This document shows, piece by piece, positions 30,880 to 51,320 of a stretch of 64,000 nt of DNA (within the stretch, counting starts at the first letter, position 1; every line of letters begins with the position of its first letter). The stretch covers positions 96,001 through 160,000 of IMG/VR virus record IMGVR_UViG_3300046615_000208; one strand, 5' to 3'. The position numbers and the translations under genes were made by a program. The notes below the pieces were generated by a model. It saw nothing but the letters and a program-made list of their open reading frames with translations. It searched no databases and was not told where the DNA came from. Source of the DNA: a virus (lineage: Duplodnaviria > Caudoviricetes).

Positions 30880-31788
30880 ATGATCACATACAAGGCAAAG
30901 ACAAGTAACGGAGAGATCATCAAGTCCGCTCTCTCCCCTTTCACCTTCCCAGCAGGGGAAGCGCACACAAAGCGCGAAGAGCGCCGCGAACTGGAACCCA
31001 CCGAGATCGCAATCCTCCAGTTCTCTCCCGAATCGATCCACGATGACCTGTTCCAGCTTGCCATGTGGAGCAATACGGTCTTCAGTGAATCCGGTAAGAT
31101 CAAGCGTGTTGCAATCATCCCTTACTTCCCCGGTGCACGTGCCGACCGTGGTACTCCTTTCGGCGCTGAAGTCTACGTGGAGTTCGTCTACTCCCTGATG
31201 CTCGATCAGGTCATCACCTACGACCCACACTCTGAGGTCTACGTTAAGCTTCTCCAGAATGATCCGGCCCTGACGGTCACTCCCGTCTACCCGCACGAGA
31301 CTCTGGGGACCATGACTGCACAGATCACTATGCCCAACGTCTATGACGGTGTCATTGCACCCGACAAGGGTGCAAAGGTGCGTGCAGGCGCTGTGGCTCG
31401 TGAACTAAATCTGCCTCTGTACACTGCCACCAAGACTCGTGACTTCGAGACAGGCAAGCTCAACGGTTTCGGTATGGAGCAGACTCTTCCCAATGATGGT
31501 CTTTACCTTATCGTGGACGACATCTGCGACGGTGGTGGTACCTTCGTCGGACTGGCTAACCACCTTCAGGAGACCACAGAGAACATCCGACTTGACTTGT
31601 ACGTCTCTCACGGTGTATTCTCTAAGAGTGCCCTAGAGAACCTCGAAAAGGCATTCTCCAAAATCTTCACCACAGACTCCTATGACCCGCATCGGAGCCT
31701 GACCACCCGAGTTTCCGAATTCCAAGATGACTCTACGTGTTTCCACCGTATTGACATCATTCGGCCCCTACTTCAGAAAGTGAACTAA
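30880..31788 (+). CDS. ribose-phosphate pyrophosphokinase-like protein (candidate NARP1 Adps)
   Basis: FPAGE, PYFPGARADR, DPHS, APDKGA, VDDICDGGGTF and VSHG motifs. Confidence 0.88.
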   Translation: MITYKAKTSNGEIIKSALSPFTFPAGEAHTKREERRELEPTEIAILQFSPESIHDDLFQLAMWSNTVFSESGKIKRVAIIPYFPGARADRGTPFGAEVYVEFVYSLMLDQVITYDPHSEVYVKLLQNDPALTVTPVYPHETLGTMTAQITMPNVYDGVIAPDKGAKVRAGAVARELNLPLYTATKTRDFETGKLNGFGMEQTLPNDGLYLIVDDICDGGGTFVGLANHLQETTENIRLDLYVSHGVFSKSALENLEKAFSKIFTTDSYDPHRSLTTRVSEFQDDSTCFHRIDIIRPLLQKVN

Positions 31789-31791
31789 GAC

Positions 31792-35134: not shown

Positions 35135-36793
35135 ATGCCCAATATTTTCCAAAGAGCTACTGTCGAGGAACCAAATGACAGAAGACAAGCTCTCCCCGCG
35201 AATACTCCGAGACCAATCACAGCATCGGCTGTTCGAATCAATCTCAAAGAAAAGAAAGAAGTCGAAGCTGTTGCCCTTAGGCGACTAGTTGACAAGTGGC
35301 AGGAAGAGGCGTGGGACTACTACGACTACATTCCTGAGGTAGCATCCTCAGCAAATCTTGTTGCCAATGTTCTTTCCAGAATTAACCTTTACGTTGGTTT
35401 TGTTTCCGACACATCACAGGCACCCTCCGACATTTCTAAGGTCGAAGGACTGGACCCCGATCTCGTTGACACAGCCAAAGAGGTACTCTACCTTCTTGAA
35501 TCTGGAAATGGCGGAACATCTGGTGTCCTCCGAGATGCGGCACTGAACTTCTTCATTGCGGGCGAGTGCTACTTGGTGCGCGAGCCTGCCCGTTTCTCCA
35601 ACGGGATGCAGGAGAAGTACCAGATTCGGTCCATCAATGAGATCGTTACAATCGAAGCCAACCGTAAGCTCACAGTGGCTATTAAGCCGCGTAGAGACTC
35701 AAAGCCTGAAGACTTCATCAAGATTCCTGCAAACGGCGGATACTGTGCACGTATGTGGAAGTCTCACCCGCGTTACGGAGATGAAGCGGATTCATCGCTC
35801 CGTCCGTTGCTCGAAACCTGTGATTCGTTGCTTCTACTTGAGCGTACCATAAACGCGCAGGCAAAGGCAATGCTTCCAGCCGGTATTTTGTTTATTCCGG
35901 ATGGTCTGTCTAACGGTTACCAGTCTGACGGAGACCTAGAGCCAGAGTTCGATGAGAACGGTGACGAGATCGCGCCACTCTCCGACGATGAATCTGAGTC
36001 CTTTGAAGAGGCCCTACAGCGTGCGCTCATGTCTCCTTTGACAGATGAAGCCAACGGTGGTAGTGTTGTACCGTTGATTCTTCGCGGCGCTCCTGAGCTT
36101 GGCGAAAAGATCAAGCACATTAACTTGTCCCGTCCGTTCGACCCGTCCCACAACAACATGGCTCAGGCTAAGCTTGACCGTATCCTCGGTGGTCTGGATA
36201 TTCCGAAGGATGTTGCCGCTGGTTTCGCCAGTGTCAAGTACTCCAACGCTATCCTCATCGAAGAGCAGTTGTTCAAGGCACACATCGAACCGCTCATCCT
36301 GTCTATCTCGGATATGCTTACAACGGCATTTCTACGACAGGCACTGCGTGAGCAGGGACGCTTTGACGAGAAGGACATCAACAAGGTTGTCGTATGGTAT
36401 GATCCGTCTGCCATCACAGCTAAGCCTTCTCGCGCAGAGGCAGCTACCACCGGTTACGAGATCGGTGCAGTGTCTCTGGACGCATGGCGACGTGCAAATG
36501 GGTTCTCTGCTACAGATGCACCTACCGAACTTGAGCGTCTACAGCGATTTGGTATGGAGAAGGGTATGCTCAATGAGGCTACAACCGAAATGGTCATCAA
36601 CTCTCTCATTCCAGAAGAAATGCAGCAGAAGCTCCGCCAGAGTCAGCTTGCAAACTCTGACCCAGCCGCTGTAGAATCCCTCGGAAATGCGCTTGGAGAT
36701 GAAGAAATGCAACCGGTGGAGCCTTCACCAACACCAGCAGCGGATTCCCCTACTCCGGTAGAGGCTCCGCCTAACACACTATTGGAGCCATAG
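35135..36793 (+). CDS. portal protein
   Basis: 552 aa, first large structural gene; WQ.EAW.YYD, GECYL, ADS and GILFIP motifs resemble actinophage portals. Confidence 0.8.
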   Translation: MPNIFQRATVEEPNDRRQALPANTPRPITASAVRINLKEKKEVEAVALRRLVDKWQEEAWDYYDYIPEVASSANLVANVLSRINLYVGFVSDTSQAPSDISKVEGLDPDLVDTAKEVLYLLESGNGGTSGVLRDAALNFFIAGECYLVREPARFSNGMQEKYQIRSINEIVTIEANRKLTVAIKPRRDSKPEDFIKIPANGGYCARMWKSHPRYGDEADSSLRPLLETCDSLLLLERTINAQAKAMLPAGILFIPDGLSNGYQSDGDLEPEFDENGDEIAPLSDDESESFEEALQRALMSPLTDEANGGSVVPLILRGAPELGEKIKHINLSRPFDPSHNNMAQAKLDRILGGLDIPKDVAAGFASVKYSNAILIEEQLFKAHIEPLILSISDMLTTAFLRQALREQGRFDEKDINKVVVWYDPSAITAKPSRAEAATTGYEIGAVSLDAWRRANGFSATDAPTELERLQRFGMEKGMLNEATTEMVINSLIPEEMQQKLRQSQLANSDPAAVESLGNALGDEEMQPVEPSPTPAADSPTPVEAPPNTLLEP

Positions 36794-36831: not shown

Positions 36832-39800
36832 ATGGCTTGGGGTAAGAATCAAAACTGGAAGTGGCAGCTTCGCGATAGCAAGGGCCGCTGGATTGAAATG
36901 GGCCGTGGGGTAAAGTGGTACTCCCCGTCATTGGGCCGCGAGGTCTCCGGAACAGTCGTAGGGCAGAAGGGTAAGAACGCAATTGTCAATCTTACCTCTG
37001 AGCCTGCCAATGCTAAAACCGGTAAGCCACAGCAGGTATCCGTTAAGGGTAGTGACATTGAGGTCATTCAGAACAAGGCTACCCTGAACCCAACAGCCGA
37101 CAAGGCCATTAGTGCCACCGATGCGATGCTGAAGCAGGGCCAGCGCACGGCTGGTCCTAAGGCCTCAGTACCTACTGAGGTAGAGAACGCGCCTGCGCCT
37201 GTTGCTAACAAGAAGTACAACGAAGCAGGCCTGACTCCTGATGAGCAGAAGGCTGTTGACTTCCAAGAGAAGAAGGCAAAGCAGGCGGCAGACAAGGGCG
37301 ACCTTGACGCTGCTGACCGCTATGAAACTGCCGCTGCCAAGACCCGTAAGATCGGTGAAGACCGCATCAAGAACGGTGAAGGCGACACTCCTGCCGAGGA
37401 TACACCCGCCGCTGGAGAAACACAAGGGCCAGCTACGTCTACCAAGGCACCTACACGTAACGCCGACATTGAGCGCGACCTCGGTCTTCTGGAGCAGGAA
37501 GCAGAAGACATCAACAACCTCGCGGACGAAGATGAGAAGGCTTCTGCCCTCGAAGCTGCACAGTACGACCTAGTCAACGACGCTGGCGACGATGTCACCA
37601 TGCGCCTAGCTGAGGGTGACGACGAAGGCAGCTATGATGTAGCTGTGGAGGACGCAGACGGCAAGGAACTAGGTCGCGTACCTATGTCAGAGAGCGCTGG
37701 CGAGCGTATCGACACGGCTAAGGCTGTGCGAGAGCTTGCCAACGGTCGTACCCCTGCCAAGGCCACCATCAGCGACGAACCCGTAGACGAGTCTCCAGAG
37801 GCTTCGGAAGCTCCCAAGGCCAACGTACCGCTGGCCGAACTTGAGAAGCAGGCCAAGGCTGATGGGGACACTGTCCTCTACCACGGTGGTCTACCTGAGG
37901 GCACGACCCTCGATGGCATCGACCTCAACCGCAATGGAACCCAGCAGAACAAGCGTGGGCAGTCCTTCGGAGGTTTCTATCTCACTGACGAGTCCTCCAA
38001 GAGTTGGTCTGACAAATACGCCATGGAGCGTAACGGTGTCATGCACGGCTTCGCTATCGACAAGAACGCCCGAATCGATGACCGTGGAAAAGAGCAGATC
38101 GACCGCATCTCCGCAGAGGACCGTGCCAAAGCTGCCGAGACCTCCGATATCATCAAGGGTAGGGACCTTCTCGGGCGTACCCAGTATGTCATCCTCAACA
38201 AGGATGTCATCAAGGGTGTTGGTGAAACCAACCTCAAGACGGACAAGGCCCCTGAGGCAACTCCTGAGGTCCCTGAGGTGGCACCAGAGGCCCCTGATGC
38301 GGCTCCTGCCGACTCCGGACTGCCCGAGTTTGATCCTGTCACCATTGCTCTGCCTAGGGACGCGTTCAAGACAGCCGACAAGATTGCAGTCGGTGACCGT
38401 CTTTTGACCACTGCCCATGCTAATAACGGCAAGGAAATGCCTGTCAGCAGGACCGATACCAATATTGCCAACGGCGAGACGGTTGACCTGACCGGTAAAT
38501 CTGCTACAGTTACTGGTGTGCAGAAGATCATGGGACAGAACAAGACCTCGCAGGGTAAGGTTGTCGGCAGCAGGGTTGCCCTACAGTACTCCGATGGCCG
38601 AACCGAATCTATGGACCTCTACGCGAACCGTGGCGGTAGTAACTCTAAGGGTGGTGTCTTCATTGACTCCCCTGAGTTCCGTGCTGCCCACATCGATAAG
38701 GCACCTGAAGAAGCGCCAAAGGATGAAGCACCGGTCGATGGTGGCAATGCTGGAAGCCCTGTTGCCAAGCCTGAACCTGTTGTGGCAGAGAGTGTTGAAG
38801 ATAAGCTCAAGGCTGCTGGAGTTGCCCGCACCGAACCTGTCGCCCTTCCGGGTGAGAAGTTCGCTCCGACGCGCCAGCAGCAGGACATCATCGACTCGGT
38901 CATGGCTGGGAAGAACACCGCAGTACAGGCTCTCGCCGGTTCCGGTAAGACCTCCACACTGGAAGCACTTGCCAAGCGTATTCAGGCACAGTACCCGGAC
39001 AAGAAGATTGCGTACATCGCATTCAACCGTTCGGTTAAGCTTGAAGCTGAAGGCCGCATGCCGTCCAACGTTGAGTCCAAGACTCAGCACGGTCTGGCAT
39101 ATGGTTGGGCACCGAAGTGGATGAAGGACCGCTCCAATGATACCGGCTCGCTTCGTCGTGGTGATGATGTTGCAGGGTTCTTGGGCATCCGCGAGACCAT
39201 CCGTCCAAAGGATGGAGAGCCTATGTCTGTCAAGGAACAGGCACTCGCCGCCATGCGTACGGTTGACACCTTCGCAAACAGCGCTGAGGATGTTCCGGAT
39301 GCCTCCCACATGCCTGAGAAGATCAAGGCTATGGGTCCTGAGGTTGAAGCTGCCGTTCTCGCGTCTGCTGCTAAGATTTGGGAGGACCTCCAGAAGCCTG
39401 ATGGTAAGATGCGCTTCTCCCTTGACCACATGCGTAAGCAGTGGGCGCTGACCAAGCCCGACCTGTCCAAGGCCGGTACGGGTCTGTCCCGTCCTGCTGA
39501 TATCATCTTCATGGATGAGGCTCAGGATACACCTAAGGTCATGGCTGCGCTCATGGACCACCAGACAGCCCAGAAGGTTGTCGTTGGTGACTCCAACCAG
39601 AACATCTACTCGTCCTTTACTGGGTCCATCGACTACATGTCGCAGGTCCAGAAGGACATCGAACTGCCGCTGACCAAATCATGGCGTTTCGGACCGGCTG
39701 TTGCTGACATCGGTAACCGTTTCCTCCAGCTTGCAGAGTCGCCTCACCGTGTAGAAGGCGGCGGCGAGTCCTCTATTGTGGAAGGTATGCAAGAGCCTGA

Positions 39801-42800
39801 CGCTATCCTCGTACGCTCCAACGCAGGTATGCTCGGAGAAATCCTCGGAGAACTTGAAAAGGGCCGCACGGTTGGTGTACCATCGGGTACTAAGAAGGAC
39901 ATGATGTCTCTTGTGGACTCAGCCGCTTTCCTAAAGGGACAGGGTGACGCTCCTTCCAAGATGCACGATGACCTAGCAGCTTACCGCTCTTGGGATGAAG
40001 TTGTTGCTGAGGCTGAAGCGGGTAACGCGACCATGGCTAAGGTTGCTAACATGGTCAACACCCACGGTATCGGTGGACTCCGCAACATCCTGAATCAGGT
40101 CGTTGAAAAGGGCGGCGATGGTCTGGCTGGTATGGTACTCAAGGGTACCTCCAACCCTAACATCTCTGTTGCCGATGGTAAGACTTTCGGTAACAACAAC
40201 GCTGATTACCTGAAGCAGGCTGGGTTCAAGTTCGGTGAGATTCCGGGCGCTGAGCCGATGAAGTCCGGTAAGAATAAGGGCAAGCCGCGTAAGGGTTGGA
40301 TCGCCACTGGTGATGAAGACGCACGTCGCGCTATGTTCAAGAAGGCACAAGAGCTTGCATCCGGTGAAGCTGTTGACGTTACGATTTCGACTGCCCACAA
40401 GTCCAAGGGTCTTGAGTGGGATAAGGTCAAGATTGGCGATGACTTCCGTGGTCCGAAGCTCAATGAGGAAACCGGCGAAACAGAGATGCCATCTCCGGAA
40501 GAGTTGCGTGTAGCTTACGTAGCTGTTACTCGTGCGGCTAAGGAACTCGATCCGGGTTCTCTCGGTTATGTCTTTGATCATACCGATGAAAATGGTGGAA
40601 TCCCTAAGCCTGCTGAAACTGGCGAACAGGATAACGCTAAGGAAGACGAGCGTCCGCTTCCGGGAACTCCCGACGATCCGGAAGCACCTTCTGATGAGGA
40701 TGTCAATGAGCCTGCTCCTGAAGCTGGGGAGCCTGCTCCTGTAGAGGAACCGACTCCATCACCCGAGGCAGAGGAACCGACTCCAGCACCTGAAGGTGGA
40801 GCACCTGAGGGTGGGGCACCTGTAGCCGTAGAGGAACCAGTCCCTGACGACGAGCAGGAGCCAGAACCAGAACCTGATGAGGTTGTAGATGCAGGCGAGC
40901 CTTTGCCTGACCCTGCACCTTTGCCGGTGAAGGAAGAGGAACCAGCGCCTACGCCGGAACCTGAGCCGACTCCTGCGCCTGTGGATGAAGAGACACCGGG
41001 ACCTGCTCCTGCACCATCTCCGGAGCCGACTCCAGCGCCTACGCCGGAACCGGAGCCTGCCCCAGAGCCGACTCCTGCACCTGTGGACGGAGAAACACCG
41101 GAACCAGAGCCAGCAGGGCCTACAGGGGGCCGTACAGAGCTTCCTACACCTGACCCACGCCCTGTGCACCCGGTCAAGCTGAAGGCCGCACAGTACCCTG
41201 ACGGTACTGTTGTACGTAGCGCTCGTAGTGGCGAAGCGTACGAGAAGACCAATGGGCAGTGGCACGTACAGGGTGATGAGGCTACTACTGTCGATCCTAT
41301 GGACTGGGAGACCCCGTTCGTATACGATATGCCGAAGCAGGACGCTGATAGCTTTGACGCCTTCGACGGAATTGACTCTGCCGAGATTGGTGATATCATC
41401 ATTACTCGTAAGGGAACACAGGCCTCTGTTGTGGGCAAGCGTGACGGCAAGCTTATTGTTGCCGCACACAACCAGAGTGAAGAGCAGCGTCGTCTTCGTC
41501 CAGCACTTGTCGCGATTGATCCGGTAACGGTCAAGGGTATCAACAAGTTCGCTGGCGCTCCTGCCGCACAAGGACCTACTCGTCCGCCGAGGACTCGTAC
41601 ACCGTTCTCTGGCAACCGTGGTAACTCCAATGTTACTATCAAGGACGTTGGCGGAAACGAGATCAAGATTGGCGACACAGTCCGTACCGACATGGGTACG
41701 GGTAAGGTTGTCCGTGTTCGTCCTTCTGATGGTCCTAGTGGTTCTGCATTCATTGAGTTCCCAGACGGCACCATCAAGAGCTTCCGTTCAAACAAGATGC
41801 GTAACACTGCATTTGCTGAGGAACAGGCTACTGGCGGTGACGATCCATCCAAGATGGAAATCGGCTCCATGGGCGAGGCTGGAGACGGTCGAGCATTCAT
41901 GGTCGGTAAGGGCAACAAGCCTATCTTCAAGGGAGACGTAGTCGAACTTGCAGACGGTACCACAGGTAAGATTTCCGGTTTTGCGAAGGGCGTTCAGTCT
42001 GTCAACATCCGTGTTGAAGGACGTGCGAGCGACCTCCGCAAGAAGGCTTCGGTTGTGGATGTTCCCGGATACAACGCTCCTGCTACTGATGCTGCCACTC
42101 CTGCTCCTGAAGAGTCGGGATCGGGCACAGCTTCTGATGGAGAAACAGCAGTCAGCGGTTTCGTGGTTGGGAGCAACGCAGCGGCTCGTGCATTCGTCCG
42201 AGAGATTGAGGACTCGGGGTGGACTGTTGACCAATTCGCTAAAACAGCGGAAAAGTCACTTGGGAACATGGGCCGTATTGACGGTAATGACCCACTGACC
42301 GCTATCTTGTCTGATGATGTTACGGACAAGCAGAGGGCCAGAGCCTCTAGTCTGCTCCGTATGATCGCAGGTTCGCACAAGATCATGGCGGACTACAACC
42401 CGGCTACCACGCCGGAAGAGAAAAAACGCCTTGAAGACCTAGACACTGCATTGTGGTTCTTCCACGAGAAGATGGAGAGAGTATGGAAGTCTCAACTCAA
42501 GAAGCTCAGGACCACAGAGGAAGCAACCCCGCTCTCCAAAGAGCAGTTGGCATCTTACGATGGTAAGGCAGATTTCTCTGGCTTCAACTACGACACTTCC
42601 CGCTTCAACCCCCTTTCCCCTGAGGGCCGTAATACGAATGATCCGGAAGATATTCTTCCCGGTACTGACATTCGTCCGGGTGTTCGTGTAGCTGACAAGA
42701 ACGGCAACGTTCTTGGTATCGTCCTCGGGTCGGCTGCGGCTCAGTACCAAGGAAGTGACAAGGTTTCTGTTCTAAAGGCGGACTCCAATATTGTCAAGTC

Positions 42801-44352
42801 TCGCGGTGTTCAGTCTCAGGATTACGAATGGAAGGACTTGGTAGCAGTTGCTCCGAAGTGGGACACATCTACCGACTTGGACTTCTCTGAAGAGGCCACA
42901 CCACAGCGTGTGGCTAACAAGTTGGAAGCGTCCTACCCCGGTGTAGCCTTTGGGTTCGAAGGACTTGACATTGAGACTTCTAGGGCGTATGCTCGAAGTG
43001 TATCAAAGATGTTCAACAAGTACCCAATGCTTCAGCAGGCACTTGCAAGCGTTTCCTCCGGTAAGAGTAAAGATGAAGGCTACCAGCCACCGTCAGGGTC
43101 TAAGCCCGTGTCAGACGACTGGTACGCCTACGCATCATTCCCCGGTGGAACTCTTGACACAACGTACAATGGTGTTAGGATGGTATTCAACTCCGGTGGA
43201 CCTAACATTCGTGGGTACAACGGAACCGTCAGGTCGGTAAAGAATGATATCGACGCTAAGTTCCACCACCCGTCACCGGAGGGTCAAGAAATTGACTCGA
43301 TTGTGATCCACGAGTTCGGACATGTTCTGGACTTCATGACCGGTAAGTTGGCTGAGGAAGACTTGTTCGATGTTTTTGCGACGGTCTGGGGTTCGGATGG
43401 GGAGACCAATCCGAACGTTGGTAAGTACCTACAGAATAAGGGAGAAATTTCGGGTTACTCGCAGATTGACGGTAAGATCAACATTACTGAATTGGTTGCA
43501 GAAGCATTCGAAGATGTGGAAATGAATGGAGTGAAAGCTACAGACCTCTCCAAGCAGATTCACGCAGAACTAATTAGAAGACTAGCTGAGCCAGATGCAC
43601 TAGCCCCAAGGGCTAATGTAGCTGCCCCTGCGGTTTTCGCTCTGGCGGATGAAATGCAAGCGTCTTTTTCCAAAGGGGGGTTCACCCTCAAGGGTGAACT
43701 CCCCGGAGGAAACTCAGGTGCGTCGATTATGCTTGGAACTCTGTCGGATGGAAAGGAAGTTGTCATGAAGACTCATGGTGGAGGGAATGCGGATAAGGAG
43801 CACCTTGCCTCCCGTGTCCTGAACACTCTCGGAGTTGACAACATCGGCACGGTGAAGGTTGATGACACGACGACCATTACCAACTTTGTTCACGGAAGGT
43901 CCGGTCTTGAGTGGATGAATGAGTCTGAGTTCAATACCCCCGTTGAGATGCGGGACGCTATGACTAAGCTGAAGAACTCGCGTGAAGTCGGCTTGTTTGA
44001 TTTCATTACCTCCAATCAGGATAGGCACGCCGGGAACTGGCTGCTTTCCGAGGACGGAACTGTTGCCCCTATTGACCATGGAGGGACATACTACAAGGCG
44101 TGGAGTCCACAGAAGGATGGGCGCTACCTGTTTGCTGAAGGCAAGTTTGCACAAAGCACTCTAGGTGTTAATATGGATAAAGAAACCTATATCACTTCGG
44201 TGGACGCATCGGTCTCTTGGACACGTGCCGAGCTTGAAGGAATCCGGGCGAAGATCGAGGGCCTTGCCCCCGACTACGCGGATCACCCCGAGTGGCATAA
44301 ATTCATGCTGGATCGGCTAGACTATCTAATGGAGGGAACCCCATGGCAGTAA
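36832..44352 (+). CDS. giant (2506 aa) polyvalent head-associated protein: ART-like, UvrD-like SF1 helicase, SH3/KOW repeats, HExxH peptidase, PI3/4-kinase/HipA-like
   Basis: LYHG..GFYLT (37873); AGSGKT (38935); DEAQD (39514); TAHKSKGLE; YVAVTRA; HEFGH (43309); DRHAGN (44020); DHG (44074). Confidence 0.85.
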   Translation: MAWGKNQNWKWQLRDSKGRWIEMGRGVKWYSPSLGREVSGTVVGQKGKNAIVNLTSEPANAKTGKPQQVSVKGSDIEVIQNKATLNPTADKAISATDAMLKQGQRTAGPKASVPTEVENAPAPVANKKYNEAGLTPDEQKAVDFQEKKAKQAADKGDLDAADRYETAAAKTRKIGEDRIKNGEGDTPAEDTPAAGETQGPATSTKAPTRNADIERDLGLLEQEAEDINNLADEDEKASALEAAQYDLVNDAGDDVTMRLAEGDDEGSYDVAVEDADGKELGRVPMSESAGERIDTAKAVRELANGRTPAKATISDEPVDESPEASEAPKANVPLAELEKQAKADGDTVLYHGGLPEGTTLDGIDLNRNGTQQNKRGQSFGGFYLTDESSKSWSDKYAMERNGVMHGFAIDKNARIDDRGKEQIDRISAEDRAKAAETSDIIKGRDLLGRTQYVILNKDVIKGVGETNLKTDKAPEATPEVPEVAPEAPDAAPADSGLPEFDPVTIALPRDAFKTADKIAVGDRLLTTAHANNGKEMPVSRTDTNIANGETVDLTGKSATVTGVQKIMGQNKTSQGKVVGSRVALQYSDGRTESMDLYANRGGSNSKGGVFIDSPEFRAAHIDKAPEEAPKDEAPVDGGNAGSPVAKPEPVVAESVEDKLKAAGVARTEPVALPGEKFAPTRQQQDIIDSVMAGKNTAVQALAGSGKTSTLEALAKRIQAQYPDKKIAYIAFNRSVKLEAEGRMPSNVESKTQHGLAYGWAPKWMKDRSNDTGSLRRGDDVAGFLGIRETIRPKDGEPMSVKEQALAAMRTVDTFANSAEDVPDASHMPEKIKAMGPEVEAAVLASAAKIWEDLQKPDGKMRFSLDHMRKQWALTKPDLSKAGTGLSRPADIIFMDEAQDTPKVMAALMDHQTAQKVVVGDSNQNIYSSFTGSIDYMSQVQKDIELPLTKSWRFGPAVADIGNRFLQLAESPHRVEGGGESSIVEGMQEPDAILVRSNAGMLGEILGELEKGRTVGVPSGTKKDMMSLVDSAAFLKGQGDAPSKMHDDLAAYRSWDEVVAEAEAGNATMAKVANMVNTHGIGGLRNILNQVVEKGGDGLAGMVLKGTSNPNISVADGKTFGNNNADYLKQAGFKFGEIPGAEPMKSGKNKGKPRKGWIATGDEDARRAMFKKAQELASGEAVDVTISTAHKSKGLEWDKVKIGDDFRGPKLNEETGETEMPSPEELRVAYVAVTRAAKELDPGSLGYVFDHTDENGGIPKPAETGEQDNAKEDERPLPGTPDDPEAPSDEDVNEPAPEAGEPAPVEEPTPSPEAEEPTPAPEGGAPEGGAPVAVEEPVPDDEQEPEPEPDEVVDAGEPLPDPAPLPVKEEEPAPTPEPEPTPAPVDEETPGPAPAPSPEPTPAPTPEPEPAPEPTPAPVDGETPEPEPAGPTGGRTELPTPDPRPVHPVKLKAAQYPDGTVVRSARSGEAYEKTNGQWHVQGDEATTVDPMDWETPFVYDMPKQDADSFDAFDGIDSAEIGDIIITRKGTQASVVGKRDGKLIVAAHNQSEEQRRLRPALVAIDPVTVKGINKFAGAPAAQGPTRPPRTRTPFSGNRGNSNVTIKDVGGNEIKIGDTVRTDMGTGKVVRVRPSDGPSGSAFIEFPDGTIKSFRSNKMRNTAFAEEQATGGDDPSKMEIGSMGEAGDGRAFMVGKGNKPIFKGDVVELADGTTGKISGFAKGVQSVNIRVEGRASDLRKKASVVDVPGYNAPATDAATPAPEESGSGTASDGETAVSGFVVGSNAAARAFVREIEDSGWTVDQFAKTAEKSLGNMGRIDGNDPLTAILSDDVTDKQRARASSLLRMIAGSHKIMADYNPATTPEEKKRLEDLDTALWFFHEKMERVWKSQLKKLRTTEEATPLSKEQLASYDGKADFSGFNYDTSRFNPLSPEGRNTNDPEDILPGTDIRPGVRVADKNGNVLGIVLGSAAAQYQGSDKVSVLKADSNIVKSRGVQSQDYEWKDLVAVAPKWDTSTDLDFSEEATPQRVANKLEASYPGVAFGFEGLDIETSRAYARSVSKMFNKYPMLQQALASVSSGKSKDEGYQPPSGSKPVSDDWYAYASFPGGTLDTTYNGVRMVFNSGGPNIRGYNGTVRSVKNDIDAKFHHPSPEGQEIDSIVIHEFGHVLDFMTGKLAEEDLFDVFATVWGSDGETNPNVGKYLQNKGEISGYSQIDGKINITELVAEAFEDVEMNGVKATDLSKQIHAELIRRLAEPDALAPRANVAAPAVFALADEMQASFSKGGFTLKGELPGGNSGASIMLGTLSDGKEVVMKTHGGGNADKEHLASRVLNTLGVDNIGTVKVDDTTTITNFVHGRSGLEWMNESEFNTPVEMRDAMTKLKNSREVGLFDFITSNQDRHAGNWLLSEDGTVAPIDHGGTYYKAWSPQKDGRYLFAEGKFAQSTLGVNMDKETYITSVDASVSWTRAELEGIRAKIEGLAPDYADHPEWHKFMLDRLDYLMEGTPWQ

Positions 44353-44555
44353 TAAAGTTCTACACCGCAAAGGACGACAGGCTCCTAGGCACCGTGACGG
44401 CGACTGAGAGCACGCTCACAGGAGACACCAACGGGGTCCGCGAGATGGTGGACGCGTGGGGGAAGTCCGCCGCCGAGTTCATCGCCGCCTATGCGGACTG
44501 GGGCAACGGCTATCTCTACTCACGAGAAGAAGTTGACGGATCGGATGAATCGTGA
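44343..44555 (+). CDS. small hypothetical protein overlapping the giant gene end
   Basis: GGAGG RBS, 10-nt overlap. Confidence 0.7.
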   Translation: MAVIKFYTAKDDRLLGTVTATESTLTGDTNGVREMVDAWGKSAAEFIAAYADWGNGYLYSREEVDGSDES

Positions 44556-44605
44556 TAAAGTGGATCAACTAGATAACGTAGGAACCTCTAACAGAAAGGA
44601 CGAAC

Positions 44606-45103
44606 ATGCTACTACCTAACACCACATGGGGACAACTCCGCGAAGAGTATCTTGCGGATGTTGAGCAAGGGGTTGTCTCATCTGAGAACCCGCTCCATGA
44701 CATCAAATTCCGTCAACTGTCATCGGATAAGAAAAACGAGGACTTTGTCTGGCCTGAAGAGGCTAAGCTCTTTAATGAGACAATCGAACAGGACCCAGAG
44801 GCTGTCACAGCCTCTGGGGAACCTGAGGGAGAGCCTGAAGCCGAATGGGAACCGCCTTCCCCGCTATATTTCACTGTAGCAGAGGATGGCTCGGTACTCG
44901 AACTGGTGAAGATGGAAGACGATGGACTCTTCATCCGCATCGAGTCGAAGTGGGTTGACATTTCCGACGAGGAAGAGTTCCCCACAGTCTACGAGCAAGA
45001 CATGCACTTCGCTAACGACGAGTCGGTGGGGGCATGGGACGCCGAGCTTGAAGATAATGACGAACTAAAACTCGAAGATATCCAAGACTACCTAATCAAA
45101 TAG
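44606..45103 (+). CDS. acidic hypothetical protein (head module)
   Basis: GAAAGGA RBS; AVTASG motif. Confidence 0.75.
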   Translation: MLLPNTTWGQLREEYLADVEQGVVSSENPLHDIKFRQLSSDKKNEDFVWPEEAKLFNETIEQDPEAVTASGEPEGEPEAEWEPPSPLYFTVAEDGSVLELVKMEDDGLFIRIESKWVDISDEEEFPTVYEQDMHFANDESVGAWDAELEDNDELKLEDIQDYLIK

Positions 45104-45251
45104 CGGCTAACACGGAAGACCAGCCATTATGGTATACTAGTACAAACACACTAACTTTGTACTTTATCCTGTGGCTGGTCTTCTCTGTGTTGCCACCAAT
45201 AACGGAAAAATATTATGCTTGACAATAACTTTGTATCCGAAAGGCAAAAAA

Positions 45252-47609
45252 TTGGCTACTAGAGCAAAGAACAGCGTCGAAAACCAGCCAAGGGACCGAT
45301 TTGGACGCTGGGTCGCGCAGGGCGCAAACATCAAATGGCGTGCCGATGGCCGAAACAAGATCGGTATCGTAAAGAGCGCTCTCGACGGGATTGCCAAGGT
45401 AGAAGAAAGAAACCCAGACGGTACATCATCTGGGAATACCTATGACGTTCCACTTAAGGAAGTACAGGTTCTCGCCTCCAAGGCTCGCATTCCAGTTGCT
45501 GGAGAAGAGTTTACCGGAAAGTCAGACAATCTGCAAGATAACCTTGACGATCCTGCCTTCCAAGATGAACTAAAGAAAAAGGGTCGCAAGTATCTCACCA
45601 TGCCTTCAGGCTACGCGCTTGAGGTCAAGGACGAGGATGACACCAACCCTCTCACCTACCAGCTATACGCACCAAATGGTCAGAGCCTAGGTATCTTCTC
45701 CAAGGAAGCACTGGCGGTTCTTCAGGAAATGATCGATATGGCAGAGAAGCCGGAAGATTCGGCTCCGGAGGATGATCAGTCAACTGAAGAGACCGTGGCC
45801 CCTGAGCAGGCAGCTTCTCTACAGACCCGTGAAGTACGGAACTTCCGCGTCCCGCCTAAGGTCAAGGAAGAGATTTCCGCCGTACTGGAGGCTGGAGCCA
45901 CAAGCTTTTCGGCTGAGGACTTGACAAGGGCTAAGGCCCTCGCGTACGATGACACTGTGTCGCTCTCCGACATCAAGTGGATCGGGGCTTACTTCTCTGA
46001 AATTGAGGCAGCAGAACGGCTGCGTGGCGGCTACAATGGCCGTAAATGGGCCTCTAAGGTCCTAGCGCCTGTCGAGAGCGACCCCTTTGCCCCCCAGTCG
46101 TCGGGCATCGAGTACGGGCGTTATGACTTTGATGACGCGGTGTTTGATTACTTCGCCATCAGCGGTGAGGAAGGCTCGCTTGATTCCTTCGCCCTTATTG
46201 CTGTAGACTATGAGACAGGTGCGGTGTACGTCTGGAGGGATGAAGGCTTCGAGTTTGAAGAAGACATCGACATCTCCACGTTTGACGCACCAAATATCAC
46301 ACCTATCGATGTTGATACAGCACTGGAGCTAGCCAAGTACATCGACACCAATGTCGATGTTGACGGATACGATATCCGCGATTCCGATGAAGAAGAGCGA
46401 AATCTATTCCTCATGGCCGAGGCAGAGCTAGATGATGATGAAATGTACCGTGTGTACACAATTATCGCTGATGCTACAGGGTACACCCCACAGGAGCGTT
46501 CTGTCAACGCACAGCGCCAGAAGCGTGGACCGGGTGGTAAGTTCGGCGGCGGACAGGCTACGGGTGCTGCCCCGGCAGGCCAGCTAACGCCTCAGTTCCC
46601 TAAGGCCAAGCTTTCCTCCGAGCTTCCTCTTGTTGCAGACATCTCTGCACGAATCGAAGAGTGGATCGCATCTGCACCAGAAGCCACAGAAGGCGCTCTA
46701 ACGGCCTCTGCTGAGTTTGCTGGGGAAACACCCGCACCTGTTGCAGGAGAGGCCCCAGCAGCCGACGCAGCCCCTGTAGGAGAGGCACCAGCCGAAGCGG
46801 CACCAGCCGCTGAAGGGTCAGCCCTCTACTTTGCCATAGTGGACGAGGTTGACAAGACTGCTGTGCTGAACGCGTTCGCTATCCTGAAGCAGGACAACGG
46901 GCCAAAGGCATACCTACGCGAAAACGCAAAATGGGCAGAGTCTCCGGATGTCCTTGCAGACATTCAAGGAACAACTCCGCCGCCTGTTGTTGAATTGGCC
47001 GTCCCGGAGCCAGCTAAGTCAGTCCTTTCGCAGATCGACCAGCACGACTCTACACAGACACAGCAGACTACAGACAGCGAGAACCAGCCAGCCGTAGTAA
47101 CTGCCAGTGCCTTTGACGATGCGGGTGTTCGAGGGTACGCGCTACCTAATGGCAGCTACCCGATCTTCGATGCAACCGATCTGGCTGTCTGTGTGGCAGA
47201 GTTCTCCGCCAAGGGCGATCCGGAAAACTTCGAAGTAAAGCGCCATATCCGTAAGAGGGCGTTTGCGCTCAACCGCATGGACCTTGTCCCGGCTGAATGG
47301 CGTACCCCAACTACAGTCGAACGCGGCATCGAACTAGAGTCCGCTCCAAATCTCTACGGAGAATTTGGGGAAGTCATCCTAGCTGCTGGCGGACATCGAG
47401 GACACCGTGGCGGCAACGCTGCGGCACTGAAGCGTTACTGGACCGTTGGTCGAGGCGCAGCAAAGATTCGCTGGGGCACCAAGGGAGACCTTACACGTGC
47501 ACACCGACACCTAGCAAAATACGTTGGCTCAGAACGCGCTTGGGGCTTGGTACAGAACTACCACCAGTCCCTGTTCGGAGTTTCAAACTACAAGAGAGAT
47601 CACGGGTAA
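45252..47609 (+). CDS. head-associated multidomain protein
   Basis: TTG start after GAAAGG; N-terminal RD..GRW module; ALPNGSYPI..HIRKRA..L....P.EW and YW..G.GAAKIRWG domains. Confidence 0.7.
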   Translation: MATRAKNSVENQPRDRFGRWVAQGANIKWRADGRNKIGIVKSALDGIAKVEERNPDGTSSGNTYDVPLKEVQVLASKARIPVAGEEFTGKSDNLQDNLDDPAFQDELKKKGRKYLTMPSGYALEVKDEDDTNPLTYQLYAPNGQSLGIFSKEALAVLQEMIDMAEKPEDSAPEDDQSTEETVAPEQAASLQTREVRNFRVPPKVKEEISAVLEAGATSFSAEDLTRAKALAYDDTVSLSDIKWIGAYFSEIEAAERLRGGYNGRKWASKVLAPVESDPFAPQSSGIEYGRYDFDDAVFDYFAISGEEGSLDSFALIAVDYETGAVYVWRDEGFEFEEDIDISTFDAPNITPIDVDTALELAKYIDTNVDVDGYDIRDSDEEERNLFLMAEAELDDDEMYRVYTIIADATGYTPQERSVNAQRQKRGPGGKFGGGQATGAAPAGQLTPQFPKAKLSSELPLVADISARIEEWIASAPEATEGALTASAEFAGETPAPVAGEAPAADAAPVGEAPAEAAPAAEGSALYFAIVDEVDKTAVLNAFAILKQDNGPKAYLRENAKWAESPDVLADIQGTTPPPVVELAVPEPAKSVLSQIDQHDSTQTQQTTDSENQPAVVTASAFDDAGVRGYALPNGSYPIFDATDLAVCVAEFSAKGDPENFEVKRHIRKRAFALNRMDLVPAEWRTPTTVERGIELESAPNLYGEFGEVILAAGGHRGHRGGNAAALKRYWTVGRGAAKIRWGTKGDLTRAHRHLAKYVGSERAWGLVQNYHQSLFGVSNYKRDHG

Positions 47610-47614
47610 CACGG

Positions 47615-49129
47615 ATGAAGATTCCACCAAAGTTTGATGAAGACATCATCAAGAACTTCAACCTCATCGACCCTGTCATTGAAACTGCACTAGTAGCAGC
47701 AGCGACATCGGTTCGTGAACTACAAGAAACTATACCAGAGACGGTAGAGGATGTCCAGTCATCCGGAGCTAAATTCTTCATCCCTCTCGCGGTACCCGAA
47801 GGTGTATCGTCCGGTGACGAACGCATCTTCGATGAAAACTCTATCACCATCCGCGACCTACCGCTACCCCTACGCTGGCAAATCATTTCTGATGAGGGCC
47901 ACAAGGGGTCTGTGGTGGTCGGACGCATTGACTCCATCGAAAGAGTTGAGGGCGGTCTTGGAAATGTGCGAGGCGTATTCGATGTCGGCGCATATGGCCG
48001 AGAATGTGAACGTCTTGTGCGGGGTAAGTTTATCCGTGGTGTATCGGTAGATGTTGACAAGTTCGAAGCGTCTCAGGCTCCTGAAGAAGGCGAAGAGCGT
48101 CAATTTGCAGACAAGGACGAAATTAAGAATCAAAAGATTCGAATTAAGTCCGCAAGGCTAATGGGCATAACAGTTGTCCCAATGCCTGCCTTCCAAGAGG
48201 CAATTATTATGATCGAAGAAGAGCCTTCACTATCGAATGGAGATGATGTTGTGGAAGACGGCATCTACACAGAACAGCTAGAGGGTGAAGACATGGAGTA
48301 CGCAGCAATTCTTGCTTCCGCTGCCCCAGTAGTACCACCGCGTAGCTGGTTCAATAACCCCAAGCTAAACGAACCTACACCCCTGAAGGTCACAGATGAG
48401 GGGCAGGTCTTCGGACACATTGCCCTCTGGAACGCCACCCACATCGGTATGCCGAGTGCAACGAAACCTCCGCACTCTTCATCCAAGTACGCCTATTTCC
48501 GGACCGGAGAACTGCGTACAGACGATGGCGACGTACAGGTAGGCCAGCTAACACTCGTGGGTGGACACGCAGATTACAATGCGAGCGCATTTGCCGCTGT
48601 CAAGCACTACGATGACACCAAGAGCGCTGTAGTGGACGTTGTGGCTGGCGAAGACCAGTTCGGCATCTTCGTAGCTGGCGCTTTGCGTCCGGGAGTCTCA
48701 CCTGAGCAGGTACGTGTCCTGAGGGCGTCATCGTTCTCGGGCGACTGGCGACCAATCAACGGCAGGCTTGAGCTTGTTGCTGTCTGTGCCGTCAACGTTC
48801 CGGGTTTCATGACCCCACGTGCAATTCTTGCTTCCGCAGGCGGAAAGGTTACAGCGCTTATTGCGGCTGGAGCATCCCCACTGGCTGACCTAAAGGAAAA
48901 CCAGAGGTTCCGCGAAATGGAAGAGCGACTTTCGCGCATGGAGTTTACCATCAACTCCAAGCGAGCAGCCGAGCTTCTGTCCCGCTTCTCTGATCTTGAG
49001 GCGCAGGAAGAGGCTAGCCTGTCCGCGAGGGCAGCAGCCGCGTTCAGCAGATTTGAGCCGGAAATCCCATCTGAGGAATCCGAGCTATCTACTAAAATTG
49101 AACAACTAATGAGCCGATTTAACGATTAA
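47615..49129 (+). CDS. capsid maturation protease
   Basis: GH..S.VVG.ID, RGVSVD and G.T.VP.PAF HK97-type protease motifs; SGDWR domain; upstream of capsid gene. Confidence 0.8.
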   Translation: MKIPPKFDEDIIKNFNLIDPVIETALVAAATSVRELQETIPETVEDVQSSGAKFFIPLAVPEGVSSGDERIFDENSITIRDLPLPLRWQIISDEGHKGSVVVGRIDSIERVEGGLGNVRGVFDVGAYGRECERLVRGKFIRGVSVDVDKFEASQAPEEGEERQFADKDEIKNQKIRIKSARLMGITVVPMPAFQEAIIMIEEEPSLSNGDDVVEDGIYTEQLEGEDMEYAAILASAAPVVPPRSWFNNPKLNEPTPLKVTDEGQVFGHIALWNATHIGMPSATKPPHSSSKYAYFRTGELRTDDGDVQVGQLTLVGGHADYNASAFAAVKHYDDTKSAVVDVVAGEDQFGIFVAGALRPGVSPEQVRVLRASSFSGDWRPINGRLELVAVCAVNVPGFMTPRAILASAGGKVTALIAAGASPLADLKENQRFREMEERLSRMEFTINSKRAAELLSRFSDLEAQEEASLSARAAAAFSRFEPEIPSEESELSTKIEQLMSRFND

Positions 49130-49165: not shown

Positions 49166-49331
49166 GTGTGTCTACGAAAAACTAAACACACACACGGTAA
49201 AAATTGATGTGCTACAATAGATATTATTAACGAGCGAAGAGCCACCTACGAGCTACTTTCCCTCCGTTTCACAAATGACGTGCCTCCATGAGTATCTAAA
49301 CTCATTTACCAAAACTTTGAAGGAGGGAACC

Positions 49332-51320
49332 ATGGATAATATCCTATCAAGCCTAGAGCGCATCTCAGAACTTTCTGAGGACGAGCTAAAGAGCCTACAG
49401 GAATCCGTGTTTACCGAATACAAGTCGGTTAAGCCGAAAGACGAGACCGCCTACACCGCAGACACAGTAGCAGCCCTAGAACAGCTTGCAGATGCCAAGG
49501 ACGCGATTACCGCAGAACTGGCAACACGCGCAGAGCAGGCTTCACAGCTTGCAGCAGCCGCAGAAGCAGCAACTTCCCGCCTAGACGCAGCAGAGCCAGA
49601 CTCCGGGTCTGACGATGCCGTAGAGGGCGATCCAGCAGCAGAGGAAGCTCCAGCAGAGGAAGCTCCTGTAGAAGAAGCCCCAGCCGCTGATGAGGAAGAG
49701 AAGAAGAAGGAGGAAGACGACAAGAAGATTGGCGAGTTTGCAGCCGAAGAGCCTGTCGTTGAAGCTCCAGCAGAGGAAGCTCCTGTAGCAGCCGAAGCTG
49801 AGGTCACTACCGATTCCGAAGCCGAAGCAACCGGCAATGTCACTGAGGAAGAGAAGGCAGAGGAAACTCCAGCCGTCGAAGCCGAAGAAGTTGCAACAGA
49901 AGAAACCCCAGAATCCACTGAAGAGGACAAAGATTCCGCTTCAGATGCTACCACAGAAGAAAGCTCGGAGGAAACAGTGACTAACTCAAACCTCAACTCA
50001 TTCTCTGCTCCAGAGGAAAACGCCCCGGTTGTTGAAGTTGCAAAGGCAACCACAACCATTACCGCCAGCGCTGATTTTGACCGTATCACATCCGGTACTC
50101 AGCTAACAAGCCTGCGTCAGGTTGCACAGGGTATCGTTACCAAGCGTAACGCCATCAAGAATGGCATGGGCGCTGACAACGAATACATCAACGTTGCTAC
50201 CATCAACACCGAATTCTCCGCTGATCGCGTTCTTGAGCGCAATGACGCCGAGGGCAACAAGGCCATCATCGACGCAGTCGTCTCCCCTGAGGCACTCGTT
50301 GCTGCCGGTGGTCTGACCGCACCTGTTGAGACCAGCTACGATATCTTCGAGCTTGGCGAGACCGATGCACGTCCAGTACGTGACTCCCTCCCGAAGTTCA
50401 ACGCTGAGCGTGGCGGTATCCGCTTCCTCACCGCTCCGATCATCGATGACCTTGACGGTGCCGTATCCGTATGGACCCTTCAGGACGACATCGATGCCGC
50501 ATCGGCTGGCGCTCCTAACCCGGTCAAGCCTTGCCTCCGCGTTCTTGCAGGAGAGGAAGTCACCGTTCACGTTGACGCCATCCCTCTCTGCTTGACCTTC
50601 GGTAACCTCCAGACTCGTGCATACCCTGAGCTTGTAGAGCGTCACATCAAGCTTGGTATGGTTTGGCACGCACGTTTCGCTGAGCAGAAGCTGCTCACCG
50701 AGATCGGTCGTCTGTCCACTAACATTGCAGTTGGTGCAACTCTGGGTGCCGCTCGCGACATCTTCTCCCAGATCGAAGTTGCTGCCGCAGCTTACCGTAA
50801 CCGTTACCGTATCGCTTCCAACGCGAAGCTCCGCGTAATGTTCCCAGAGTGGTTCCGTAACGCTCTGCGCTCTGACCTCATGAAGCAGCTTCCGGGCGAC
50901 GGTCGTGACGGTACATTCAACCTTGGCGAAGCCGAGATCAACTCATGGTTCGCTTCTCGCGACATTGCAGTTACTTGGTTCATCGATGGCGAAGAGGGCC
51001 AGATTTTCGGCGCTCAGGTAGATGCAACAACTGACGGCGGCACTGGCGTTGTCACTCCTGCTGCACTGCTTGCCTTCCCTGATACTCTGGTATGGTACCT
51101 CTTCGCAGAGGGCACCTTCATCTTCCTTGACGCTGGTACACTTGACCTCGGTCTTGTCCGCGACTCCGCCCTCAACGGCACCAACGACTACAAGATTTTC
51201 TTGGAGACATTCGAAGGTGTTGCCAAGGTCGGTCAGGAATCCCTCCGTATCAAGTCTGACCTCTCCATCCGTGGTGCCTCTTCAGGTACCGTTGATGTTC
51301 CGGTGACAAACAGCATCTAA
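49332..51320 (+). CDS. major capsid protein with N-terminal acidic scaffold region
   Basis: GGAGG RBS; highly biased codons; ALVAAGG, RPVRDSLP.F.A.RGG and LDLGLVRDS.LN.TNDY motifs. Confidence 0.85.
   Translation: MDNILSSLERISELSEDELKSLQESVFTEYKSVKPKDETAYTADTVAALEQLADAKDAITAELATRAEQASQLAAAAEAATSRLDAAEPDSGSDDAVEGDPAAEEAPAEEAPVEEAPAADEEEKKKEEDDKKIGEFAAEEPVVEAPAEEAPVAAEAEVTTDSEAEATGNVTEEEKAEETPAVEAEEVATEETPESTEEDKDSASDATTEESSEETVTNSNLNSFSAPEENAPVVEVAKATTTITASADFDRITSGTQLTSLRQVAQGIVTKRNAIKNGMGADNEYINVATINTEFSADRVLERNDAEGNKAIIDAVVSPEALVAAGGLTAPVETSYDIFELGETDARPVRDSLPKFNAERGGIRFLTAPIIDDLDGAVSVWTLQDDIDAASAGAPNPVKPCLRVLAGEEVTVHVDAIPLCLTFGNLQTRAYPELVERHIKLGMVWHARFAEQKLLTEIGRLSTNIAVGATLGAARDIFSQIEVAAAAYRNRYRIASNAKLRVMFPEWFRNALRSDLMKQLPGDGRDGTFNLGEAEINSWFASRDIAVTWFIDGEEGQIFGAQVDATTDGGTGVVTPAALLAFPDTLVWYLFAEGTFIFLDAGTLDLGLVRDSALNGTNDYKIFLETFEGVAKVGQESLRIKSDLSIRGASSGTVDVPVTNSI

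Follow-up and report, generated by a model that had tools for sequence, protein, structure and literature searches.

What is a single gene for several unrelated enzymes doing among the head genes of a phage? This question is raised by an open reading frame (ORF) at positions 36832 to 44352 of the plus strand in a 64,000-nucleotide stretch of viral DNA (the window), which comprises bases 96001-160000 of a single virus record of 171,752 bp (IMG/VR record IMGVR_UViG_3300046615_000208; CheckV completeness 99%). The ORF is stop-free throughout in translation, has an AAGGAG ribosome-binding site 7 nucleotides (nt) upstream of its ATG and encodes a protein of 2,506 amino acids (aa), referred to here as P0001; the phage carrying it is a 172-kb actinobacterial phage. 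On balance, we consider it rather probable, judging from comparisons of sequence and gene order, that P0001 is a phage-type polyvalent protein which would be made together with the head genes, most likely be loaded into the procapsid and be released with the DNA into the next host. The packaged, co-injected toolbox put forward in a preliminary description of this DNA is partly supported by these comparisons and is the best reading of them.

Two hallmarks of polyvalent proteins are found, as at least two unrelated enzymes are encoded in one ORF and this ORF lies among the virion genes of a portal-terminase phage. That P0001 might be packaged cargo is suggested because its gene sits in the slot after the portal gene, because its N-terminus is common to a second head protein, because relatives of its kinase are fused to MuF, VG15 or portal domains, and because this kinase has an immunity-like partner. 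The chain comprises the following parts.

36832..44352, plus strand: gene for the giant polyvalent protein P0001, an uninterrupted ORF with ribosome-binding site, 55 giant homologues, and Racecar gp78 and Atuin gp71 in the equivalent slot
36832..37095, plus strand: N-terminal module, aa 1-88, with a basic stretch, Q-L-R-D-x-x-G-R-W at aa 12-20 and a small beta-rich domain ending in NKATL
37096..37857, plus strand: low-complexity spacer rich in Ala, Glu and Asp (A 18%, E 12%, D 11%), aa 89-342, no family match
37858..38241, plus strand: domain with ADP-ribosyltransferase (ART) fold, aa 343-470, with invariant H351, Y383 and D439
38344..38706, plus strand: beta-rich domain, aa 505-625, kept in P0003, P0011, P0020 and P0022 at 39-66%, no Pfam match
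38824..40581, plus strand: UvrD/Rep-type superfamily 1 (SF1) helicase, aa 665-1250, from Pfam, phrog_1967 and motifs
40594..41226, plus strand: linker rich in Pro and Glu (P 29%, E 18%), aa 1255-1465
41239..42156, plus strand: beta-rich region, aa 1470-1775, with three units of the type 'GD-x-V...G-x-G-K-V', 42-75% identity in 13 relatives and many invariant G, D and P
42199..42885, plus strand: region ahead of the zincin, aa 1790-2018, 27-38% identity in relatives and always upstream of the zincin, no Pfam match
42886..43599, plus strand: zincin, aa 2019-2256, with HEFGH at 2160-2164, D2167 and ELVAEAF at 2220-2226
43639..44349, plus strand: atypical kinase (PI3/PI4-kinase, CtkA, HipA-like), aa 2270-2506, with G-loop 2292-2298, K2313, E2323, DRHAGN 2397-2402 and D2415

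With respect to its distribution, this architecture, a combination which the preliminary description did not recognise, is not unique. A search of 5.8 billion proteins retrieved 55 giant relatives of 1,483-4,376 aa, so that there are at least 55 such chains, some of them in cultured phages. Chains of 1,650-4,400 residues occupy this slot in phages of Arthrobacter and of Microbacterium. Nearest among those in culture are four Arthrobacter phages of ~194 kb, Racecar, Mimi, Talia1610 and Atuin, of which Racecar encodes gp78 (2,709 aa) and Atuin gp71 (3,113 aa) in the equivalent slot. Both are annotated as 'DNA helicase' in GenBank, and the present analysis corrects this label for these proteins of 2,700-3,100 residues. 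The Microbacterium phages Zooman and Cece are further cultured members via the common N-terminal module. Comparing domain architectures in relatives had been proposed as a check, and it uncovers a family in which the N-terminus is constant and the enzymes are exchanged.

The degree of this exchange is evident from mapping the segments of P0001 onto its relatives. Relative to P0011, identity amounts to 92% in the ART domain, 84% in the kinase, 47% in the helicase and 36% in the zincin. At the nucleotide level the ART module alone resembles Atuin DNA (86% identity over 37780-38238 of the window, nt 949-1407 of the ORF), and the remainder of the giant gene gives no megablast match; as far as sequence comparison goes, this confinement of DNA similarity to a single module is a clear recombination mosaic. 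Uneven identities, together with modules that come and go, show module shuffling on a fixed carrier, in which the N-terminal module is constant while the enzyme modules are swapped between phage lineages. Other cargo in the family includes an intein (PF14528) in P0012, a weak GNAT match in P0019, ParB in P0311, RNase T together with ArdC-N and MPTase-PolyVal in P0039, and NUDIX in P0040, P0043 and P0044. Over positions 42001-46000 of the window, from the zincin through the kinase and the small gene to the genes that follow, the G + C content falls to 0.517-0.518, as compared to 0.55-0.56 in the first 5 kb of the ORF.

The genomic surroundings of the giant gene are those of a head module, the genes of which are arranged as follows.

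35135..36793, plus strand: portal protein gene (phrog_776, 6.1e-80; the relatives Racecar gp77 and Atuin gp70 are annotated as portal)
44343..44555, plus strand: gene for a 70-aa kinase partner, overlapping the 3' end of the giant ORF by 10 nt
44606..45103, plus strand: conserved head-module gene of 165 aa, with homologues Racecar gp79 and Atuin gp73 and neighbours in L003, L004 and L005
45171..47609, plus strand: head-module protein of ~800 aa with N-terminal RDxxGRW module (motif Q-P-R-D-R-F-G-R-W) and C-terminal phrog_6439
47615..49129, plus strand: prohead protease/scaffold gene (phrog_859, phrog_18402, weak Peptidase_S78 match), its start set just past the stop of the preceding gene
49275..51320, plus strand: major capsid protein gene (phrog_777, 8.3e-84; 64% identity to the Mimi major capsid protein)

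Of the slot 'between portal and protease' that had been assigned to the gene, the first half holds exactly, since the giant ORF directly follows the portal gene with a gap of 38 nt; on the other side three genes (70, 165 and ~800 aa) intervene before the protease. Racecar, Atuin, L003 and L004 all show the succession of portal, giant gene, ~150-aa gene, ~800-aa gene, protease and major capsid protein, and parts of it can be seen in L005 (where the contig begins at the giant gene), L008 and L009. The giant gene directly follows the portal gene in the window as well as in the six relatives' loci that include a portal gene. In L004, the ~800-aa gene is separated from the protease gene by an inserted gene of 277 aa (18145-18978), which has a weak GIY-YIG match and probably codes for a homing endonuclease.

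The constant part of the chain is its N-terminus. As the preliminary description had it, P0001 begins with an RDxxGRW module, and nearly all giant relatives begin with it as well: it is found at residue ~15 in 44 of 56 giant proteins, five of which (P0041, P0042 and P0054-56) are without detectable helicase. It is shared, moreover, with the ~800-aa protein family, with which the N-terminus of the giant proteins aligns over about 75 residues. Genome-wide (171.7 kb), P0001 and the ~800-aa protein are the only carriers of the motif at the N-terminus, one further match being internal to an unrelated ORF. By profile search the module was detected in over 100 clusters within the ~800-aa family and also on proteins of 1,650-2,000 aa of the Microbacterium phages Zooman and Cece, some of them with kinase, ParB or ART, and a related header, [FY][DN]PxQxRDxxGRW, stands ahead of the modules in the unrelated kinase-bearing proteins P0112, P0127 and P0159. 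These findings suggest that the N-terminal module serves as an address for capsid loading or anchoring. In sequence it matches KOW (Spt5) weakly (E 0.19). The ~800-aa gene has no ATG, and its start candidates are GTG 45171 and TTG 45219, 45231 and 45252; TTG 45252 is more likely to be the start than GTG 45171, and from it RDxxGRW would fall on residues 12-20, at about the same N-terminal distance as in P0001. The match to phrog_6439 covers the C-terminal ~60 residues of this protein.

At the opposite end of the chain, the PI3/4-kinase/HipA-like domain that had been read from the sequence is substantiated by a match in fold and by the presence of all catalytic residues. In 32 kinase sequences K2313, D2397/R2398/N2402 and D2415 are invariant, and E2323 is conserved in at least 90%. 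The isolated kinase segment reaches 27.2 bits with PF00454 (cut-off 27.1), longer contexts giving 23.6-25.9 bits with the catalytic loop only, and 24 of 59 kinase relatives match PF00454 (best 2.4e-8) and four HipA_2. The structural model retrieves VPS34 in Foldseek (E 2e-8), and in VIA, an aligner independent of Foldseek, it is closest to CtkA (Z 13.0, 197 residues aligned, root-mean-square deviation (rmsd) 3.4), followed by PI4K-II-alpha (12.9), HipA (10.9) and HipT (10.2), with actin-fragmin kinase also being matched. Fold and motifs of the modelled domain do not distinguish protein from lipid phosphorylation. Relatives of this kinase are fused to Phage_Mu_F (P0095, 58.5 bits) and VG15 (P0135, 62.6 bits; also P0142 and P0176), and in P0094 there is a weak Phage_portal match in the same protein. 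Fusions of effectors to MuF- or portal-type domains are a published argument for packaging into the head (PMC5512222, PMC9503650).

The kinase is accompanied by the 70-aa gene. Homologues of this partner have 64-71 residues and adjoin the giant gene in all eight kinase-bearing loci, and they are absent from all three loci without the kinase, i.e. Racecar, Atuin and L004. In L003, L005, L006 and L007 the partner gene overlaps the kinase end just as in the window, and in three more distant lineages (L008, L009 and partially L010) a partner homologue lies between the portal gene and the giant gene. Identity of the partner goes down to about 36% where that of the kinase is 46%. By the logic of polymorphic toxins, a small immunity gene adjoins the toxin module and co-varies with it, and the partner gene behaves in this way towards the kinase as the putative toxin module. 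Profile searches of the 70-aa protein against Pfam and the Protein Data Bank (PDB) gave no match, and a HipS-like or other known identity was dropped on that ground.

Prediction of the kinase-partner complex yielded ipSAE values of 0.83, 0.85 and 0.83 (best control 0.00), which express the confidence of the model and come from runs with their own shallow partner alignment of five rows. The partner had a predicted local distance difference test (pLDDT) score of at least 86, and at least 94% of the contacts agreed between runs. In a calibration that is only roughly valid for runs with their own alignments, the mark was reached by 58 of 80 solved complexes and by 2 of 110 mismatched pairs. The predicted interface comprises the G-loop (2290-2301), the hinge (2353-2373), the catalytic loop (2399-2404) and D2415. 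The simplest reading of this model is that the 70-aa protein acts as an immunity-like plug which would silence the kinase in the producing cell.

The most serious alternative concerns this small protein alone, which, with a chance well below even, might not inhibit the kinase at all but mimic its substrate, activate it as a subunit or be packaged along with it as a chaperone. The complex model gives only the location of the 70-aa protein, which stands outside the known antitoxin and immunity families, and the position of its gene upstream of the giant gene in three lineages would be compatible with a co-assembled subunit. Against this, the predicted contacts fill the cleft for ATP and substrate (G-loop, catalytic loop and metal-binding Asp), as a plug would, and MuF toxins with small downstream immunity genes form an established pattern, as described in the accessible parts of two reports (PMC5576092, PMC11699363).

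The metallopeptidase preceding the kinase had been read as a zincin from HEFGH...ELVAEAF, and both motifs could be located in a domain with a lethal-factor-like fold. Its best structural neighbour is the catalytic domain of anthrax lethal factor (1yqy_A, Z 12.2, 184 residues, rmsd 4.0, model residues 20-257; pLDDT of the AF2 model 87.7). In 28 zincin sequences H2160, E2161, H2164, D2167, a Tyr and E2220/E2224 of the E..AE.F helix are invariant, and an Asp three residues past HExxH is a trait of a widespread phage-type clade of zincins (PMC5512222). The domain matches phrog_7153, 'zinc-finger protease', at 3e-6, and hhalign against the PF18818 domain of P0039, a template consisting of a single sequence, gave a probability of 6%. 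An exhaustive profile-free search with the C-terminal 507 residues retrieved 662 relatives, in which zincin and kinase are separable and also recur as a pair. Self-processing by the zincin is a published hypothesis for polyvalent proteins (PMC5512222).

Likewise, the ART-like domain that had been suspected at about 37860-38230 is borne out at the level of the fold (37858-38241). In an alignment of about 30 sequences (27 stand-alone and 5 fused homologues), H351 in strand 1, Y383 in strand 2 and D439 before strand 5 are invariant (model strands E13-18, E49-51 and E106-110), the configuration given for ARTs of polyvalent proteins being His in strand 1, Tyr in strand 2 and Asp by strand 5 (H-Y-D; PMC5512222). 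With the AF2 model (pLDDT 88.7), the best Foldseek matches were all ADP-ribosyltransferases, namely exotoxin A (E 9e-4, TM 0.52), cholix, PARP2 and tankyrase, and nearly all of the top 50 VIA matches belong to the ART superfamily, including diphtheria toxin (Z 7.4), ParT, RhsP2, NatT, RES, PARPs and Tpt1; an Atlas shape search returned DUF3990, ART-PolyVal and PARP clusters. ART-PolyVal (PF18760) matches weakly in 5 of 30 relatives (best E 0.018). Since the gathering score is not reached, the domain is filed as an H-Y-D ART related to this family and not as a member of it. An exoenzyme-type ART (PF03496) occurs at a different position in P0011, P0019 and Atuin gp71 and is a separate module that is absent from P0001. 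The sole match of the ART profile in the PDB, phosphoglycerate mutase (E 0.012), was judged spurious. In VIA, the ART model also matches the chain 9k3a_B of the cyanophage A4 pre-ejectosome (Z 6.4 over 120 residues), which suggests an ART-like domain inside this structurally characterised ejection protein.

The models of ART, zincin and kinase thus map onto the folds proposed for them, and six of the seven modules named in the preliminary description were confirmed. As their catalytic residues do not vary even in distant relatives, these three domains are under selection as enzymes. As for the central part of the chain, the linker rich in Pro and Glu, placed before at about 40600-41170, is evident from its composition. 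The SH3/KOW-like repeats fared less well: aa 1470-1775 gave no Pfam or PDB profile match and an Atlas score of 0.84 with low recognition, and pairwise local alignment of seven beta-rich segments against shuffles revealed no significant internal repeat (maximal z 3.1). From their sequence pattern it is possible that the 'GD-x-V...G-x-G-K-V' units are SH3-like barrels.

The SF1/UvrD helicase, predicted before at about 38860-40560, is supported by Pfam matches above cut-off (PF00580, 42 bits, cut-off 23; PF13361, 36.4 bits, cut-off 25.6; AAA_19, PF13245) and by motifs I, II and VI, i.e. the Walker A sequence GSGKTS (703-708), DEAQD (895-899) and VAVTRA in motif VI (1229-1235). In addition, it matches phrog_1967 (4.6e-78) and human FBH1 (9xzj_F, 5.8e-26). 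It is the sole UvrD-type or SF1 match genome-wide, and no DnaB-type helicase was found in the genome; outside the window there is a 709-aa ORF (G000:C1:38826-39071) with a match to Helicase_C of superfamily 2 (SF2).

This helicase gives rise to the next alternative, according to which P0001 would be a cytoplasmic late protein, a recombination or repair helicase with accreted host-modifying domains that acts in the producing cell and is encoded in the head operon merely for the timing of its expression. In favour of this idea are that no enzymatic module is retained more widely than the helicase and that the genome encodes no other SF1 helicase, that stand-alone homologues of the P0001 helicase (phrog_1967) are found in non-structural regions of many phages and annotated as DNA helicases, and that P0001 has neither a MuF nor a portal domain. 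However, at least five relatives (P0041, P0042 and P0054-56) retain the slot and the N-terminal module without a detectable helicase, this module is common to another head-module protein, and MuF, VG15 and portal fusions exist among the kinase relatives. Moreover, a separate SF2 helicase is encoded elsewhere in the genome, and an enzyme working in the producing cell would hardly be expected to have an inhibitor-like partner, all of which renders this alternative unlikely.

Similarly improbable is a mainly structural role of P0001 in the ejection apparatus (as internal head body, ejectosome conduit or DNA-internalisation motor, with the helicase pulling the 172-kb genome in and the other enzymes as secondary passengers), since, for all its size, long linkers and beta-rich repeats reminiscent of ejection proteins, the existence of giant ejected proteins such as the N4 virion RNA polymerase (PMC5512222), the alignment of the A4 pre-ejectosome chain with its ART model and the helicase as the commonest core, even distant relatives keep the catalytic residues of ART, zincin and kinase unchanged, some relatives are without helicase, and no membrane-spanning or conduit-like segment was identified, albeit in the absence of a systematic search.

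The interpretation of P0001 as packaged cargo also has to be weighed against a number of less favourable observations. Pfam gave no match on the ART segment of P0001, ART-PolyVal (PF18760) included, and none for MPTase-PolyVal (PF18818) in the whole protein, and P0001 has no Phage_Mu_F (PF04233) match at E <= 1 and no detectable portal domain. As the sole SF1 helicase of the genome, the helicase might have a cytoplasmic role in replication or repair. The complex prediction, shallow as the partner alignment was, cannot separate an inhibitor from a substrate or cofactor. Finally, nothing on Racecar, on Zooman or on virion proteomics of any relative was found in the literature searched.

Taken as packaged cargo, P0001 would be one carrier polypeptide holding several unrelated and probably active predicted enzymes. 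Its N-terminal module would load it into, or anchor it in, the procapsid, and it would be ejected with the DNA into the next host cell. After ejection, ART and kinase might modify host molecules by ADP-ribosylation and phosphorylation, the helicase might work on the DNA as it enters or on nucleoprotein barriers of the host, and the zincin might cleave the P0001 chain itself or host targets. In the producing cell, the 70-aa product would plug the cleft of the kinase in the manner of an immunity protein for a toxin domain. A bolder version, which we offer as tentative and think rather less likely to hold in full, would have the RDxxGRW motif plus barrel as a general capsid-loading address in a large clade of actinophages, with the core motif likewise in many other phages, the kinase and a cleft plug of 70 residues from a new family as a toxin-immunity pair in virion cargo, and the UvrD motor as a virion-delivered enzyme acting on the entering genome.

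The class to which P0001 is assigned is already known, and its experimental anchors are P1 DarB and the N4 virion RNA polymerase. Not found described were an actinophage family with a UvrD core, the N-terminal carrier module of this family, and a complete PI4K/CtkA/HipA-like kinase that has a small partner of its own. DarB, which belongs to the Dar antirestriction system of phage P1 and the packaging of which in the P1 head has reportedly been shown experimentally, is likewise a very large helicase-containing phage protein with early action on incoming DNA or host barriers, the corresponding head carriage of P0001 being deduced by comparison. The helicase of DarB belongs to another superfamily and is joined to an adenine methylase, whereas in P0001 no methylase was detected and ART, zincin and kinase are added. 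In the literature on polyvalent proteins DarB is cited as the archetype of a packaged methylase-helicase (PMC5512222).

With the polyvalent proteins described in that study (PMC5512222), P0001 shares the giant chain of unrelated enzymes, including an H-Y-D ART, a zincin with Asp three residues past HExxH and a kinase, as well as the location among virion genes of a portal-terminase phage, the shuffling of modules and the prediction of packaging and injection. However, its core is a UvrD-type SF1 helicase, which in the published set is restricted to a few actinomycete plasmid proteins, where it occurs beside SNF2, and its carrier is a new N-terminal module and not MuF, portal or ArdC-N. In addition, the Pfam models for ART-PolyVal and MPTase-PolyVal remain below threshold in P0001. 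The kinase of the published polyvalent proteins is without a C-terminal subdomain and was found in the Verrucomicrobia-Chlamydia group and Bacteroidetes (PMC5512222), in contrast to the complete PI4K/CtkA/HipA-like kinase of the actinophage protein.

The polymorphic MuF toxins of temperate phages, as far as the accessible parts of the sources describe them (PMC5576092; Bxa with two immunity proteins, PMC11699363), are similar in being head-gene proteins encoded by the portal gene, with swappable C-terminal toxic enzymes and a small protective gene, and a relative of the P0001 kinase rides on a MuF carrier (P0095). P0001 differs from them in that it has no MuF domain, has 2-5 times their size, combines four enzymes and comes from a phage of 172 kb; by occurrence count, the word 'kinase' does not figure in the text of PMC5576092. 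The N4 virion RNA polymerase gp50 is giant as well (~3,500 aa) and is encapsidated and ejected to act before host-independent expression, packaging of P0001 being again a deduction, and it has a lethal-factor-like zincin domain (PMC5512222), which is the structural neighbourhood of the P0001 zincin too. Its cargo, however, is an RNA polymerase, its phage is a podovirus infecting Gram-negative hosts, and there is experimental proof that gp50 is encapsidated. HipA/HipT and Helicobacter CtkA, finally, are the nearest solved folds of the P0001 kinase, and in these systems, as putatively in P0001, a small protein controls the kinase. There is, however, no membership at the level of sequence, the partner is unlike HipB, HipS or any Pfam or PDB entry, and the P0001 kinase is the C-terminal module of a phage protein of 2,506 aa.

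Injected phage proteins decide the first minutes of an infection, and to our knowledge few of them have been studied beyond T4 Alt, the N4 virion RNA polymerase and P1 Dar. Here, four predicted enzymes are combined on one carrier, the constant N-terminal module of which is a concrete candidate for a capsid-loading signal, and kinase and small partner make up a compact candidate enzyme-inhibitor pair of unknown families. Since cultured relatives exist on laboratory hosts (phages on Arthrobacter globiformis B-2979 and the Microbacterium phages Zooman and Cece), packaging, processing and early action are directly testable.

With respect to the remainder of the window, no tRNAs were found in its 64 kb. 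A few genes upstream of the portal gene, at 30880-33303, a gene for a PRPP-synthetase-like protein (phrog_619) adjoins a NAMPT gene (phrog_448, 7e-175), and ~3 kb further upstream of this pair a macrodomain ORF of 159 aa (PF01661, 29.8 bits) lies at 27271-27603. This set of NAD+/ADP-ribose genes could be linked either to the ART cargo or to a host defence that depletes NAD+.

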